Shown here one piece after another: positions 3,869-41,562 of a stretch of DNA of 56,368 bases. Each line of letters begins with the position of its first letter. Positions within the stretch are counted from its first letter, which is position 1. The DNA is from a virus. Lineage: Duplodnaviria; Caudoviricetes. Below the pieces are notes generated by a model. That model saw nothing but the letters and a program-made list of their open reading frames with translations. It searched no databases and was not told where the DNA came from. The position numbers and the translations under genes are program-made. Location: positions 1-56,368 of the IMG/VR virus record IMGVR_UViG_3300017912_000240. One strand, 5' to 3'.

Positions 3869-3999
3869 ATCTCATTGTCCTCTTTATGTTTGGGCTTCCT
3901 GTTATAGCTTCCCCTGCCCTTGGGTGGTTTGACTACCTGCTTTGCGTAGTGCTTGCTTTGTAGTAGTCTAGCAAATGGATTTGGTTTTTTCCGCTTCAT
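3865..3999 (-). CDS. ArfA-like (alternative ribosome rescue factor-like) basic peptide, 44 aa; not in ORF track
   Basis: MKRKKPNPFARLLQSKHYAKQVVKPPKGRGSYNRKPKHKEDNEI resembles E. coli ArfA ...[27 protein letters not shown]; ATGA coupling to the next gene. Confidence 0.65.
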   Translation of the reverse strand: MKRKKPNPFARLLQSKHYAKQVVKPPKGRGSYNRKPKHKEDNEI

Positions 4000-4008
4000 A
4001 GTGTAGGG

Positions 4009-4037
4009 ATAGTAGCAAGCCTAGTGCGTGATGTCTA
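4009..4037 (-). promoter_or_regulatory. Early promoter TAGACA-N17-TACTAT (extended -10 TGn), almost leaderless for the ArfA-like gene
   Basis: -35 at 4032-4037, -10 at 4009-4014; ATG 9 nt beyond the -10; no SD. Confidence 0.6.
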
Positions 4038-4163
4038 ATCACGAATTGTTACAGTCTGTAACATTTTGTGATGTTGTGCCTGCATTTTGTGTCTAGTGCC
4101 TGCATTAAATATGTGATATAATCCCTTCAACTATTGTGACGGGGTGCAATAGTTATACCCAAA

Positions 4164-4343
4164 TTATATTTGATTATATATTTGTTTATAACTATACCCC
4201 ATCAGGGCAATGCCTGTTACCATCATTAGTGTGCCGATAAATATGGCTATAGGATATACTGGCATACTATAGACTATCATCCAGCCAGCGACTGCCATAA
4301 GTTTACAACACATAATTACTGTGAATAGAATTAGATTATACAT
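4164..4343 (-). CDS. Small membrane protein (about 2 TM segments)
   Basis: Hydrophobic MYNLILFTVIMCC...; GGGG SD. Confidence 0.5.
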   Translation of the reverse strand: MYNLILFTVIMCCKLMAVAGWMIVYSMPVYPIAIFIGTLMMVTGIALMGYSYKQIYNQI

Positions 4344-4357
4344 TTTATTTTCCCCTA

Positions 4358-4954
4358 TTAAATGTTGTGTATACGTTTCCAGCATACCCATGTAATAGCC
4401 TGCATCTCAAAAGCTTTTAATGCCCGACCATTAAATCGTACTTTCTTGCCTGCTTCGACATAGGCTTTTTGTATCTCAATATATTCTTTTTTGCCAATGT
4501 TTGTCTTGTCGCTGGTCAATCCTGCACGCTGATTATAGTAAATATTTCTTGCATGCCCATCTACCGTGCAAGTGTCATCACCCATAATGTTGCGATAAAA
4601 TGACACAATTTTTTGCCCATTAAGAATCTCAATCACGCCATTATGGTCGGGCATTGCATCCAGAATAGACCATGCCTTGCGTTTCATGGCGTTATATGTA
4701 GATACCTTTATGCTTTCAATATGTTCGCCATTTAAGTATGCTTCAATCAAATCTCTTGTGTTGTCTATGTTTCTTTCCCACTTATTATTAGGTGACAATG
4801 CGGCACATACGCCGACAACAATGTGCAATGGCGTGTCTGTATCCTCTGAAATACGCATGCATGTTGCCAGTGCCGTTGCATACCAGACAACACCATGTTT
4901 CTTTTCCTCTGGGGTTGCCATGCGGTAAATGTTTACAATGTTTTCAATAGTCAT
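4358..4954 (-). CDS. Putative HhH DNA glycosylase-fold protein
   Basis: AALSP, KxxSF, TVDGHA (compare endonuclease III VDTH) and QAITW motifs; GAGG SD. Confidence 0.55.
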   Translation of the reverse strand: MTIENIVNIYRMATPEEKKHGVVWYATALATCMRISEDTDTPLHIVVGVCAALSPNNKWERNIDNTRDLIEAYLNGEHIESIKVSTYNAMKRKAWSILDAMPDHNGVIEILNGQKIVSFYRNIMGDDTCTVDGHARNIYYNQRAGLTSDKTNIGKKEYIEIQKAYVEAGKKVRFNGRALKAFEMQAITWVCWKRIHNI

Positions 4955-4984
4955 AAAAAATTCCTCTTCTCAAAACTTTCATGA

Positions 4985-5013
4985 ATTAGAGCATATTTAT
5001 TCATACTTGTCTA
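4985..5013 (-). promoter_or_regulatory. Early promoter TAGACA-N17-TCTAAT (extended -10)
   Basis: Same -35 and TGC as the 4009-4037 promoter. Confidence 0.5.
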
Positions 5014-5056
5014 TAATTATTTTCATATATCTTGTTAATATCTTATGAAATTATTC

Positions 5057-5193
5057 TGCCTAATTATTATGCATCTGCCTATAATTTAATCAGTGTAACC
5101 CATTGATATTATTGCCTTTTATCTGCCTAGTTATTGTGCAATTCATGGTTATTATTTAGGCACATTAAACACTCATTGCCTAAGAATTGTGCA
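5057..5193. promoter_or_regulatory. Five 17-bp NtrC-like boxes (TGC-N11-GCA type)
   Basis: 5057-5073 TGCCTAATTATTATGCA; 5076-5092; 5124-5140 TGCCTAGTTATTGTGCA; 5146-5162 (inverted); 5177-5193 TGCCTAAGAATTGTGCA. Confidence 0.6.
5096..5108 (-). promoter_or_regulatory. IHF consensus site
   Basis: TATCAA-TGGG-TTA matches WATCAA-N4-TTR. Confidence 0.45.
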
Positions 5194-5218
5194 GTTTGTC
5201 ATAATGCGTGCATGTTTT

Positions 5219-5284
5219 GTTCACCTTTTGTTCACGATTTGTTCTATGTACTTGTTTTGTTCACGATTTGTTCACCTTTTGTTC
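5219..5284. promoter_or_regulatory. Tandem alphaproteobacterial LexA boxes (two GTTC-N7-GTTC-N7-GTTC triplets)
   Basis: GTTC at 5219, 5230, 5241 and at 5259, 5270, 5281; spacers ACCTTTT and ACGATTT. Confidence 0.75.
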
Positions 5285-5552
5285 TACTTGCCGACCCTAG
5301 TGAGCGCATGCATAATATAGAATAAAAAAAATAAAAAAAATTTTTGAAAAAAAAATGTGGACTAGCCGTGTTGTCGGACGGTTGGCCTTTTTGTTTCAGT
5401 TAACCCATCCACCGAGATTAACCTACACTCTTTTCTTATTTATACACGGTGTTGTCGAGTCGTTCCGTGTAGTGACCTAAGACAAGGCCAATTCGATTAA
5501 ACTAAAGATAATTAGAAAACACCATGAGTATATTATTATTTCAGCAATTTTC

Positions 5553-5732
5553 TCAATCAATAGCATGCGCCCTCGCTTCAAATCGTGCAGGGTCAAACAG
5601 GTTGTTAAATTCTGATAGTACCTCGCACCATGATGCAACGGACTCTTGAAACGCCACATCATCGGCAAACAAGCCTGCATGATTATCGTGACGTAATTTG
5701 TCGGCGATAGCCTCGAAATGTTTTTTAGTCAT
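5553..5732 (-). CDS. Small phage protein (59 aa, MTKKHFEAIA...FDPARF type); not in ORF track
   Basis: Open frame with the MTxKxFxxIA...FDxxRF pattern I recognise from phage early genes. Confidence 0.6.
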   Translation of the reverse strand: MTKKHFEAIADKLRHDNHAGLFADDVAFQESVASWCEVLSEFNNLFDPARFEARAHAID

Positions 5733-5740
5733 ATGAAAAG

Positions 5741-5767
5741 AGTGACGGGGTTATTAGCCCCGCCACT
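5741..5767 (-). terminator. Hairpin, possible terminator or processing site
   Basis: Minus strand reads AGTGGCGGGG-loop-CCCCGTCACT followed by CTTTT. Confidence 0.5.
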
Positions 5768-5775
5768 TCCCTAGA

Positions 5776-6021
5776 TTAGAGTGCTGAAAGATTCCAGAAC
5801 GGACGCTCTGTCTTCTTGCGCTCTAGGTAAACACTTCGCTTGCCTAGATGCAAACCCCTAGTCGTTTCACCCTTAGTGAGTCCAAAACGACTTGTCGCTT
5901 TTCGTACTCGATAGAGTCCAGAACGATTCCCGACATTGAATCGGAAACCATCGGTTCCATCATTGAGGCTTGCGCCTTTTTGAAAAAACGGGGTAGGCAC
6001 TACTTTTGAAAATGAAGTCAT
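5776..6021 (-). CDS. Basic hypothetical protein; first gene of the early arm
   Basis: AAGGA SD; directly downstream of the Pho-box promoter. Confidence 0.6.
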   Translation of the reverse strand: MTSFSKVVPTPFFQKGASLNDGTDGFRFNVGNRSGLYRVRKATSRFGLTKGETTRGLHLGKRSVYLERKKTERPFWNLSAL

Positions 6022-6140
6022 CGCTTCATCCTTTCATTTTGCCGCCATTAAAAAACCCGTGCGGTATCGGCGGCGGCGGCCAAGGTTGCACAGGATTCAC
6101 AATGTCAAACAACACGGGGGGTGTCCCTCTTATTGTTTTT

Positions 6141-6196
6141 AGAATAGCAATCTATTGTTACAGTTTTGTGACAATTACATTACAGTTTTGTGAAAT
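6141..6196 (-). promoter_or_regulatory. PhoB-type promoter: four 11-bp-spaced Pho half-sites plus -10 TATTCT
   Basis: Minus strand: ATTTCAC-AAAA-CTGTAAT-GTAA-TTGTCAC-AAAA-CTGTAAC-N10-TATTCT. Confidence 0.7.
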
Positions 6197-6200
6197 GTTT

Positions 6201-6215
6201 GTTCACGTTTTGTTC
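6201..6215. promoter_or_regulatory. Alphaproteobacterial LexA box
   Basis: GTTC-ACGTTTT-GTTC. Confidence 0.65.
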
Positions 6216-6225
6216 CACCCTGCAA

Positions 6226-6288
6226 ACCAGAATCATTCCAAAAAAGGATTCTTGCCTGCTTTAGAATGTTTCTAAGAATCGTTCGCAA
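6226..6288. promoter_or_regulatory. Iron-regulator boxes: two Irr ICE-like elements and an overlapping Fur-like box
   Basis: 6260-6276 TTTAGAA-TGT-TTCTAAG (ICE consensus TTTAGAA-N3-TTCTAAA); 6226-6242 ACCAGAA-TCA-TTCCAAA; 6272-6288 CTAAGAATCGTTCGCAA. Confidence 0.55.
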
Positions 6289-6658
6289 CCGACCCGCCCA
6301 CAAAAAATTTTTGTCTGTATATATATATATATTACCCCTGCCATATACTGACCAAATTTAAGAACCTTTTCATAGACAGGGGGTGGGGTACTATTTCTAA
6401 AAATAAAACTACAAAAACACTGTTCTATTACTAGAAAAAAATAAGAGAGTATATCATATAAAAAAACCACCACGGACGGGGGCATCCGAAGTGGTATGTA
6501 TTTGTCTTGTATAGCTAGAGTTAATGATATATAATTACATGTACAGCGGGGGCAGGACAATAACTAGGGTATAACTATTGCAACCCTTTACTTTAAAGTA
6601 AAATTAGTATAGCACATTTTTTATACTTTTACAATATCAATTCACAGGAAAAAGTAAA

Positions 6659-8221
6659 TTGAGTAATCACGAATTGTTACAAGATGAAACAAAGTCTATC
6701 CCTGACTTTAAAAATTATGTAGACTTTAAATTTAATATGGAGCGATATATTAAGGCAAAGTCTAAGACAGACTTCCTTACATTTGTTCGCAAGACAGCCC
6801 CCACTCTGGTTACAGACTTTAAGATGGGTAGGCACATTGAGCTATTGTGTGACAGACTACAGAAGGTAGCCGATGGTGAAATAAAAAGACTGATGGTCTT
6901 TCTACCACCCCGTAGTAGTAAAAGTCTTATTACTAGTAAGATATTTCCTGCGTGGTATATAGGCCGTGAGCCTAACCACGAGATTATGTCTGTGTCCCAC
7001 AGCGACCAACTGGCTAGTGACTTTGGACGTAGCGTTAGGGACATTGTAAACACAGAAGAGTTTCAGCGTACATTCAAGGGTGTGTCTCTGCGGTCAGACG
7101 TTAAGGCAGCAGGTAAGTGGAAGACAAACCACAATGGCTCCTACTATGCAGCAGGTGTGCGGTCACAGATTGCAGGTCGTGGCGCACACCTAGCCTTACT
7201 GGATGATGTTATGTCTGAAGAAGACAGCTTCAGTGAGGCAGGCCGTAGGTATATCAAGGAGTGGTGGCCTTCTGGTTTGCGTACCCGTCTAATGCCTAAT
7301 GGTTCTATTATTATTATTAATACAAGATATCACTTTGATGACTTATGCGGCTGGCTGCTAAAGCAAGAGTCAGAGTTTACCACAGAGCCGTGGGAAGTAA
7401 TTAGTATTCCTGCATGGCTAGACGAGACTGCAGCAGATTTGCTGGGTTTGCCAGAAGGCACGTCATACTTTCCAGAATGGAAGCCAGATGATGTATTGAA
7501 GCTAGACGAGCAAGAGATACGAGCAAGCAATGGGAGTAGATACTGGGATGCGCTATATATGCAAAACCCCTCGCCAGACGAAGGCGGTATTATCAAAAAA
7601 AACTGGTTTCAGTGGTGGGAGTATGAAGAGCCACCGCACTGCGAGTTTATTATCCAGACCTACGACACAGCATTCTCTACTAAGAAAACGGCAGACTATA
7701 GTGTCATACAAACGTGGGGCATTTTCCATCAAGTCGAGCAAGATGAATATGGTGGAGAATATGTCGTTCCCAACCTCATCCTTCTCGGAAATGTTAAAGA
7801 ACGGTTCGAGTATCCTGACCTTCGCCGCACGGCACAACATCTATACCAAAAACACAGACCAGATGTGTGTATCATTGAGAAGAAGGCTTCTGGTCAATCG
7901 CTGCTTCAGGACATGCGCCTCGCTGGACTACCTGTTTTGGACTACCTTCCTGATAGGGACAAAGTTTCACGTGTCTATGCCGCTACGCCTCTTATGGAGT
8001 CGGGTCGTGTCTACATCCCGAAAGGCAAGGAGTGGGCAAAGGATTTATTCGATGAATGCCTAGCCTTTCCCAATGGCGCACATGATGACCAAGTAGACGC
8101 AATGACTATGGCTATCCACTATATGAGGGACAGTTGGCATGTGTCACACAATGAAGACCCTGACTGGGAAGATGATTATAATCCTAGAAGACAAAAGAGG
8201 GTTGGATACTGGAGAACTTAG
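6659..8221 (+). CDS. terL: Terminase large subunit
   Basis: PPRSSKS Walker A, LLDD Walker B, nuclease motifs QTYDTA and HDDQVDA. Confidence 0.95.
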   Translation: MSNHELLQDETKSIPDFKNYVDFKFNMERYIKAKSKTDFLTFVRKTAPTLVTDFKMGRHIELLCDRLQKVADGEIKRLMVFLPPRSSKSLITSKIFPAWYIGREPNHEIMSVSHSDQLASDFGRSVRDIVNTEEFQRTFKGVSLRSDVKAAGKWKTNHNGSYYAAGVRSQIAGRGAHLALLDDVMSEEDSFSEAGRRYIKEWWPSGLRTRLMPNGSIIIINTRYHFDDLCGWLLKQESEFTTEPWEVISIPAWLDETAADLLGLPEGTSYFPEWKPDDVLKLDEQEIRASNGSRYWDALYMQNPSPDEGGIIKKNWFQWWEYEEPPHCEFIIQTYDTAFSTKKTADYSVIQTWGIFHQVEQDEYGGEYVVPNLILLGNVKERFEYPDLRRTAQHLYQKHRPDVCIIEKKASGQSLLQDMRLAGLPVLDYLPDRDKVSRVYAATPLMESGRVYIPKGKEWAKDLFDECLAFPNGAHDDQVDAMTMAIHYMRDSWHVSHNEDPDWEDDYNPRRQKRVGYWRT

Positions 8222-40939: not shown

Positions 40940-41135
40940 AATAAAGCGACCTAGTATTTTGATTAATTATTTTTGGACACCTATCATCGTAATAAATCTG
41001 ATGTGTCTTCTTTGTTTTTTTGTAATCCTTACACTGATATGTACACCTGCGTACTAATGTTGCAGGTTTACCGTGCATATATGCCATTGTTACCCCCTGC
41101 ATATATAGGTAACAAAGCGCACTAGCTGCTGTTAT
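40929..41135 (-). CDS. Small Cys-rich, possibly secreted protein
   Basis: Overlaps both neighbours; CxYxC motif. Confidence 0.45.
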   Translation of the reverse strand: MTAASALCYLYMQGVTMAYMHGKPATLVRRCTYQCKDYKKTKKTHQIYYDDRCPKIINQNTRSLYYGR

Positions 41136-41562
41136 CATCTTCAAAGTCCTCTGGAAATGTTTCGATTAAAATAGAATATATCTTTTCTTTACCAATAATT
41201 TTAATACAATTTTTTATTTCGTTTTCAAGAGTATCTAAATCATCGGGTACATTATCTTCTTGATTGTTACCCCGCACACGAGACAAAAGCTCAAGTGCTT
41301 TTAGTGCTGTCTGTCCATGACCGTTTGATTTAGCTGCCTCATATTGTTTCTCTAATTCAGATATAACATCTACATCTGTTGTTATCTCACTACCTAACTC
41401 TTCAATTCTTTCCTGTATCTCTGGTCTTTTTAAAAGCTCGTGACCTTGATTGTATGCTGACCTTTCACTATACCCTGCAGCAACAGCAGACTTTGTGGCG
41501 TTCCTGCTAATATAGTAATTCTGTGCAAATTTTTCCCACTTTTCTTTCTCAAGAACGCCCAT
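41122..41562 (-). CDS. terS: Terminase small subunit
   Basis: FAQNY...NATKSAVAAGYS..SA...GHELL.RPEI...I HTH signature. Confidence 0.8.
   Translation of the reverse strand: MGVLEKEKWEKFAQNYYISRNATKSAVAAGYSERSAYNQGHELLKRPEIQERIEELGSEITTDVDVISELEKQYEAAKSNGHGQTALKALELLSRVRGNNQEDNVPDDLDTLENEIKNCIKIIGKEKIYSILIETFPEDFEDDNSS

Follow-up and report, generated by a model that had tools for sequence, protein, structure and literature searches.

The virus record IMGVR_UViG_3300017912_000240 of IMG/VR (56,368 nt, analysed at full length and called the window here) contains a control region with rows of the box GTTC-N7-GTTC, a form known from the SOS operators of Alphaproteobacteria. These LexA-like rows are strongly non-random and recur in related phages. 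For the elements of the region, existence, selection and accessory status are shown. The suggestion that they would serve as operators for the host's LexA, set within a modular control hub, is put at a little short of an even chance. The stretch that holds them, 4000-6660, is supported as a control region between divergent gene arms. An initial annotation had placed it between an early and a late arm, which agrees with the gene order: the large terminase gene (terL), the portal gene and other late genes run rightward from 6659, and DUF7178, followed by replication genes across the record ends, runs leftward from 4954.

The boxes start at 5219, 5230, 5259, 5270 and 6201, all on the + strand, with no other copy on either strand of the 56,368 bases, and so occupy the two places (5219-5284 and 6201-6215) at which the initial annotation had called LexA sites. 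The expectation for the whole window is 1.46, and at least five boxes were reached in two of 100 shuffles; within 4000-6658 the expectation is 0.06 and none of 300 shuffles reached five. Recurrence was assessed in 35 non-redundant relatives, each with at least 600 bp upstream of terL. These hold 60 boxes in 47,716 bp upstream of terL vs two in the other 221,065 bp, with at least one box in 16 of the 35 lineages and arrays missing from the remaining 19. The spacer of seven is strict, since N7 gives the 60 boxes and any other spacer from N3 to N12 at most four, and other orderings of the same four letters yield at most eight. Box number rises to nine in one relative and to 17 in an unrelated contig (L119). 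Isolated GTTC pairs, the form of one operator, are also carried by relatives, without long T-phasing. In the arrays each unit carries a T-run in helical phase, and it is the T-run plus GTTC that is conserved across relatives.

The SOS operators described for Caulobacter have the form GTTC-N7-GTTC (PMC9578287). In a sample of 31 lexA loci from 201 alphaproteobacterial genomes, entered via Mesorhizobium, this box lies within 250 bp upstream of 24 of the 31 genes. A score matrix made from the non-core positions only of 26 host lexA boxes gave +0.24 for 65 phage boxes, compared with +4.9 for host boxes left out singly, -8.0 for random windows of the same regions, -4.0 for equally T-rich windows and -7.25 for 11-bp TTGTTC arrays inside long open reading frames (ORFs) of other viral contigs. 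The phage boxes appear to resemble real lexA operators beyond the core, though not fully. They share with these operators the core, the strict 7-nt spacer and a similar T-rich spacer; unlike them, they lie in a phage, occur as rows with three half-sites each and deviate in two flanking bases.

The explanation favoured is that of a modular control hub in an apparently lytic phage that would depend on host RNA polymerase, placed beside the conserved promoter block at 6292-6372. Further promoter-like sites, short accessory gene cassettes and several operator-like repeat families would also belong to this hub, and the GTTC-N7-GTTC pairs and arrays would most likely be operators for a host LexA of the alphaproteobacterial type. 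Binding by host LexA would tie accessory genes to the SOS state of the host, namely DUF7178, the small ORFs and possibly the transcripts of the conserved promoter. Palindromes resembling the ICE and phased Pho-like half-sites share the same slot and may be sites of Irr/Fur-family and PhoB-type regulators, a much less secure assignment. Directly next to the 5219-5284 array there are promoter-like sites on the + strand, and the conserved block has the 6201 box at its side; depending on the direction in which this block is transcribed, the boxes may lie after an early promoter or ahead of a late one. A six-frame search of the window for LexA, a tyrosine integrase or an HTH_3 regulator was empty, and no repressor-type Pfam domain was found among 30 ORFs scanned, in agreement with the earlier statement that the phage has no recognisable repressor or integrase.

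The host is likely to be an alphaproteobacterium, as judged from cultured kin and from the DNA of DUF7178. No close cultured relative of this phage was found. The best cultured matches are the Pelagibacter phages HTVC023P/027P (terminase and portal at about 40%) and HTVC103P-type phages (polymerase at 46%), followed by the Roseobacter phages CRP-901/902 and then by Caulobacter phages. CRP-901 has a different replication module and four GTTC-N7-GTTC boxes in 50 kb vs about two expected, hence no array. At the DNA level, DUF7178 shares 68-78% identity with genes from phages of Lentibacter and Celeribacter (roseophages). The leftward replication genes encode a primase-helicase of T7-gp4 type (T7 gp4 / DnaB type), a DNA polymerase A, a Cas4-type exonuclease, ThyX and ribonucleotide reductase. 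The phage group is common, because at least 578 related terminase loci are present in IMG/VR.

Within this group the arrays come and go. L005 and L009, the relatives nearest in terminase (92-93%), carry different genes in the control region and lack an array, and five relatives that are 91-100% complete each have zero to two boxes in all, which does not exceed the yield of a reversed control pattern. Because these five near-complete relatives are without arrays, the arrays are accessory, which argues against an essential origin or packaging site. None of the ORF families within 5 kb tracks the arrays, the best accompanying five to six of 17 array-bearing loci. In the family of the 81-amino-acid (81-aa) gene, any box is present in ten of 25 loci and arrays in two of 25.

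Similar rows extend to other viruses. Scanning a viral collection for three TTGTTC words on an 11-bp period returned at least 119 viral contigs of two kinds. In the first kind the arrays lie inside long open frames (contigs of 26-53% guanine plus cytosine, G+C), and in the second they are non-coding, like those of the window, in contigs of 40-57% G+C with no shared neighbour gene. Contigs of the first kind (L084, L086-L090, L092 and many more, 26-53% G+C) show five or six words inside frames of 180-330 codons, and these in-frame rows may be origin iterons within a replication gene. L119 is of the non-coding kind and its terminase DNA is 67-69% identical to that of large cultured Rhodobacterales phages. 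The cultured roseophage DSS3P8 has two boxes and no array in the 25 kb examined. The array sequence had no match among 50,697 phage records; of the array-bearing contigs compared with cultured phages, L091 and L085 gave no match and L124 gave methylase and ParB fragments only. A 16-bp palindrome, TGTTTCACGTGAAACA, is found in L034/L037 at about -590 from terL, in L119 at about 5870 and in the DSS3P8 locus L352 at about 20615, and may be the site of a Rhodobacterales host factor. Palindromes of the form GTCAA-N4-6-TTGAC, a further operator-like family, stand directly beside GTTC pairs, several per region, in the relatives L032, L050, L053 and L068; the window is without them.

Use of host regulators by phages has been described in other settings. 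In one phage of Alphaproteobacteria, a gap of 1.3 kb separates divergent genes and contains 12 CtrA sites, TTAA-N7-TTAA, to which CtrA bound in gel shifts (PMC9437464). The window resembles such phages in the large gap between divergent arms of an apparently lytic phage with a probable alphaproteobacterial host, and in its N7-spaced half-sites of host-regulator type. It differs in that the word is GTTC rather than TTAA and points to another regulator. The CtrA form TTAA-N7-TTAA occurs once in the whole window and not at all in 3900-6700. Temperate phages that co-opt LexA (GIL01, CTX and those with 186-type antirepressors) are also reported (PMC9437464). If the boxes of the window bind, the likeness is that host LexA sites couple phage genes to DNA damage. 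Such temperate phages, as covered in that source, carry one or two sites at the switch, in contrast to the rows of the window phage, for which no integrase or repressor was found.

The ICE, the Irr box of Rhizobiales and Rhodobacterales, is a 17-bp palindrome (PMC1698941). Its consensus, TTTRGAAYNRTTCYAAA, is matched at 6260-6276 with two mismatches and at 6226-6242 with three. At up to two mismatches one match was found in 4000-6658 vs 0.03 expected, a count reached in nine of 300 shuffles. ICE-like palindrome pairs recur in the relatives L029 and L031-L037 at a shared position between -310 and -550 relative to terL, and a perfect copy of the 17-mer is present once each in L029 and L032. In the non-redundant set, seven ICE-like boxes lie upstream of terL and one elsewhere, with 0.7 expected from shuffles. 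Alignment places the ICE-like palindromes, with an element made of a short A-run and GGATTCTT, just to the left of the conserved block; the latter element is next to this block in 14 of 22 lineages, and rows of GAAC occupy the same slot in other lineages. In the 150 bp to the left of the anchored block, LexA-like boxes were found in seven of the 22 lineages, ICE-like boxes in three and a 20-bp palindrome in nine. The slot data support a modular operator slot, as read from the alignments, although the ICE-like boxes may instead be variants of one AGAAY-based element. Unlike the ICE as described (PMC1698941), the phage boxes are confined to one subclade, overlap GANTC, share a half-word with the GAAC boxes and have no link to an iron gene. 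Methylation at GANTC by CcrM was considered as the meaning of these boxes and rejected, since the relatives show no GANTC enrichment ahead of terL (85 vs 157 expected). The Irr/Fur sites of the initial annotation are borne out in part: the pairs recur in a subclade, the window taken alone is near chance genome-wide, and no match to the Fur 19-mer was found in the region within six mismatches.

The comparison with Pho boxes used the E. coli 18-mer consensus. Two matches were found in the region vs 0.25 expected (reached in ten of 300 shuffles), and five at up to three mismatches in the whole window vs 6.24 expected, a chance level. The best Pho-like 18-mers of 6156-6199 have three to four mismatches to this consensus. 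As read from the sequence, the half-sites on the - strand end 10 nt before a -10-like hexamer, TATTCT, at 6141-6146, as for a box that replaces the -35 element. Six 11-bp units stand in one phase over 6156-6222, four of them Pho-like and two forming the GTTC box. The close relative L002 keeps four Pho-like half-sites with the units permuted, and the region upstream of an alphaproteobacterial pstS gene has a near-identical Pho box, two letters from that of the window. The proposed PhoB sites keep, in their favour, four phased half-sites and L002; they are at chance genome-wide and are not generally conserved. Cyanophage Pho boxes read by host PhoB offer a precedent (PMC10976474), also in a lytic marine phage and also with direct repeats of PhoB type ahead of a gene. 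Those boxes precede acquired phosphate genes, whereas those of the window precede the 81-aa gene and are kept only in one close relative.

Other parts of the proposed panel did not survive. The five boxes called NtrC-like, TGCCTA-N8-NCA at 5057, 5076, 5124, 5146(-) and 5177, are real repeats, and the family is present in three of 35 relatives, but none of the five lies within three mismatches of the NtrC consensus. Matches to the -24/-12 promoter of sigma-54 in the region are three, all weak, vs 1.58 expected (reached in 64 of 300 shuffles), with none beside the TGCCTA boxes. The integration host factor (IHF) site at 5096-5108(-) is one consensus match, reached in 79 of 300 shuffles and so at chance. 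The NtrC and IHF calls are rejected as real features. A 20-bp imperfect palindrome, GTGTTGCAWAAATGTCACAS, lies upstream of terL in 52 copies in 21 of 35 relatives (for example L047, L053, L073, L075 and L077) vs 1.4 expected; the window holds only degenerate forms of it.

Several observations weigh against host LexA operators in a modular hub. The phage boxes score below real operators, and depart from host boxes in two bases, one lying two positions 3' of the first GTTC and the other immediately preceding the second GTTC. The 11-bp TTGTTC arrays are also found in viral contigs of 26-50% G+C, where a LexA of alphaproteobacterial type is unlikely. A chromosomal operator does not usually consist of three or four half-sites in a row: the triple form occurs in 39 stretches among the genomes of 185,579 species, one of them alphaproteobacterial by title, and because of this scarcity rows of three are a habit of phages and not of chromosomes. 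Over 200 bp separate the main array from the closest leftward promoter-like site, and the conserved promoter carries hexamers in both directions. Repression of early genes by LexA is, moreover, awkward for a lytic phage. As regards the less secure members of the hub, ICE matches at up to three mismatches number four in the whole window vs 4.98 expected, near chance; ICE-like boxes are present in only three of 35 lineages and absent from 127 kb of 15 unrelated array-bearing contigs. Pho-like tandem repeats were counted in nine of 35 lineages at a loose threshold without shuffle control and are kept properly in L002 only, and the common motif of the relatives is an imperfect palindrome rather than a direct repeat of PhoB type. 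Finally, two of the eight units in the window are exact copies of an octamer from the replication origin of phage P4, and five of the eight share TGTTCAC with it.

This last similarity also speaks for the main rival explanation, considered possible but distinctly less probable than not, in which the repeats are docking sites of one or more candidate phage-encoded DNA-binding proteins (as iterons of an auxiliary origin, as a partition or packaging site, or as operators of an early/late switch) and their likeness to a host consensus is coincidental. In the P4 record (NC_001609) 16 type-1 origin repeats are annotated, of which 11 read TGTTCACC, at 9-11 bp spacing, and according to record annotation and sequence they are bound by P4's own primase. 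The P4 ori/crr iterons and the arrays of the window have in common an octamer sharing TGTTCAC, the 9-11 bp spacing, clustering and a non-coding position. An extreme A/T-rich tract abuts the array, many viral contigs of differing G+C commonly have 11-bp TTGTTC arrays within long ORFs, and most small phage ORFs are without known function. Moreover, the small terminase is more diverged (59-73% identity among relatives) than the large one (77-93% in the same genomes), so that a recognition site might co-vary with it, and the TGCCTA boxes and the 20-bp palindrome are repeat families without a host candidate. On the other hand, the window encodes no alpha-like protein (the best tblastn match to P4 alpha has an E-value of 7.7), no neighbouring ORF family tracks the arrays, and an essential site would be expected in all genomes, not missing from 19 of 35 lineages and five near-complete genomes. 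What relatives keep is the T-run with GTTC, not the ACC tail of the P4 octamer; the same arrays appear in an unrelated roseophage-like contig with a different terminase; and the strict N7 spacing and the isolated pairs fit an operator for a dimer. This rival is weakened but alive, as a single unrecognised binding protein encoded by one of the many small ORFs would be enough for it.

A full panel of LexA, PhoB, Irr/Fur and NtrC sites, plus IHF, through which early promoters would integrate DNA damage, phosphate, iron and nitrogen status, was the proposal of the initial annotation and is now very improbable. Its LexA-like boxes are real and solid as arrays, the ICE-like pairs of L029 and L031-L037 stand at the same spot with perfect 17-mers in two of them, and the four phased Pho-like half-sites have the spacing, the relative and the pstS counterpart described above. 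When the motifs were set against shuffles, however, the LexA-like boxes stood out, sigma-54 and IHF were at chance and the ICE and Pho counts were occasionally reached; clustering in relatives likewise holds for the LexA-like arrays, for ICE-like boxes in a subclade only and for Pho-like sites in one close relative only. In addition, the NtrC consensus is unmatched by the five boxes, the ICE and Pho matches of the window are near chance genome-wide, the ICE-like boxes do not accompany GTTC arrays outside their subclade, and their AGAAY half-word is that of the GAAC boxes of the same slot, so they may be variants of one element. To speak of at least four unrelated host regulators appears to overstate the evidence from sequence, which partly supports the idea: NtrC and IHF drop out, and sites for Irr and PhoB are possible. 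About as improbable is a decoy function, in which the arrays would not regulate phage genes; on replicating genomes they would titrate LexA away from the host's SOS regulon, which would thereby be induced to the advantage of the phage. The many half-sites (up to nine boxes in a relative, 17 in L119), the distance of the main array from an obvious promoter and the accessory nature of the arrays would suit a decoy, but it depends on the predicted LexA binding; single pairs beside promoter-like sites in relatives look like ordinary operators, and the window holds only eight half-sites. That there is no specific binder at all, the repeats being phased T-tracts that bend DNA or junction repeats left from swaps of cassettes, is equally hard to credit. 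The helical phase of the T-runs, the high mosaicism of the region among close relatives and an RNA-library contig that joins 5285 directly to 6198 without the cassette are in keeping with it. However, although G and C of GTTC are invariant by the definition of the search, only this tetramer with N7 is enriched; curvature alone would not hold G and C fixed in a T-rich unit, and isolated pairs occur without long T-phasing.

Phages that use host regulators have been described as separate examples, with LexA for temperate phages, CtrA for phages of Caulobacter type and PhoB for cyanophages. No paper title on rows of GTTC-N7-GTTC in phages was found in the literature searched, which is not proof of absence. 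What is new is the reading with several regulators, which is partly supported; as an observation its LexA-like part is solid, and use of a host regulator is a plausible interpretation of it. If the GTTC rows bind LexA, an abundant group of marine phages, uncultured and lacking genes for lysogeny, would either sense or sequester the SOS repressor of the host, which would give phages of Alphaproteobacteria a route to couple infection to DNA damage, for example by sunlight in surface water. A bolder picture, regarded as unlikely, is that operators of different global regulators of the host (LexA rows, Irr/Fur palindromes, PhoB repeats) would be swapped into one slot among lineages of widespread, apparently lytic marine phages, with at least two inputs combined in the window. 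Related phages would in that case make infection conditional on, or adjust it to, different states of the host, such as DNA damage, iron or phosphate. The presence of alternative box types in one slot beside a conserved promoter makes this a directly testable idea. If a phage protein binds instead, the arrays would mark a new accessory iteron system common to unrelated phages.

Table. Features of the window in and around the control region, with coordinates, strand and remarks.
Feature	Position	Strand	Remarks
Window	1-56,368		complete IMG/VR record, direct terminal repeats present
Near-palindrome, 17+17 nt	4036-4072 (arms 4038-4072)		just upstream of a promoter-like site for the leftward operon starting at 3999
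Inverted repeat, 32 nt, 84% complementary	left arm 4136-4167, right arm 6560-6591
Coding stretch	4164-4954	-	DUF7178 and a 75-aa ORF
DUF7178 gene	4358-4954	-	first sizeable gene leftward of the 5219-5284 array
TGCCTA-N8-NCA boxes, n=5	5057-5193		local repeat family
Two GTTC triplets at exact 11-bp spacing	5219-5284	+	four overlapping GTTC-N7-GTTC boxes, LexA-operator-like
Extreme A/T-rich tract	5300-5358		adjoins the array; followed by a terminator-like hairpin at 5362-5385 (+)
59-aa ORF	5553-5732	-	no family match
Terminator-like hairpin	5741-5767	-	3' of the 81-aa gene
Gene of 81-aa basic protein	5776-6021	-	family conserved in 25 viral contigs
Pho-box-like half-sites, n=4, 11-bp period	6156-6199	-	direct repeats
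Single GTTC-N7-GTTC box	6201-6215	+	in phase with the Pho-like units; identical in the close relative L002
AGAAT-N-ATTCT palindromes	6226-6288		ICE-like matches at 6226-6242 and 6260-6276
Conserved block	6292-6372		non-coding stretch most strongly conserved in relatives; promoter-like hexamers facing both ways
Candidate short leftward transcription unit	6467-6634	-	promoter-like 6634-6606 (extended -10), terminator-like hairpin 6488-6467
Large terminase gene terL	6659-8221	+	first gene of the rightward arm

The region had been described as mostly non-coding, which is true in part, as 4164-4954 is coding and 5776-6021 encodes a conserved small protein. Terminator-like hairpins are enriched in it (nine vs 2.1 expected), and promoter-like sites, among them those at 4985-5013 and 5176-5316, are not, with 16 vs a shuffle mean of 12. 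In the alignment, the conserved block shows a leftward -35/-10 pair of fair quality, together with a rightward TATAAT that most relatives have in perfect form. The promoter-like site of the unit at 6467-6634 is 96% conserved in several relatives, with a hairpin 110-130 nt downstream. A short leftward transcript is suggested, with a fold z-score of -1.78 that is not convincing. The RNA-library contig that joins 5285 to 6198 has 22 other letters between them; because of this join, a relative without the cassette between the GTTC arrays (A/T tract, 59-aa and 81-aa ORFs) is deduced. In one RNA run a tenth of the sampled words was present, and this run yields only contigs of relatives at 88-99% identity, strand-blind and without ends or levels; its empty bins at 5671-6171 carry no weight. 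At the edges of the region, the near-palindrome of 4036-4072 is also matched in L020, L022, L024, L035 and L037. An exact 18-nt direct repeat is present at 4036-4053 and 6664-6681, the right copy at the start of terL, and together with the 32-nt inverted repeat it flanks the variable 2.6-kb region. No obvious ribosome-binding site precedes terL.

The predicted model of DUF7178 has a pLDDT (predicted local distance difference test) of 91.8, and its best structural matches are Ogg2-type 8-oxoguanine glycosylases (probability 1.00, template modelling score 0.52-0.59, E-values of 4e-3 and weaker), with a weak match in sequence. DUF7178 may, on the strength of this model, be a DNA glycosylase (HhH-GPD) of Ogg2-type resemblance. 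A repair-type gene behind SOS-type boxes would make sense, yet the boxes are at least 265 bp away. As the regulated gene, DUF7178 was rejected: boxes lie upstream in 23 of 78 loci (not de-duplicated), 290-1650 bp off, which is too loose and too far for a regulon. The family of the 81-aa protein, in its 25 viral contigs, has a conserved LNDGT..GFRFN ... HLGKRSVY pattern.

Elsewhere in the window, the small terminase gene is at 41122-41562 (-), about 20 kb from terL and in the opposite arm. GATC occurs once in the 56,368 bases vs about 207 expected from composition, and GANTC 96 times vs about 207 expected, 11 of these at 5457-6276. The relatives are also depleted in both words, GATC less strongly than in the window, and this shortage suggests strong restriction or methylation pressure from the host.

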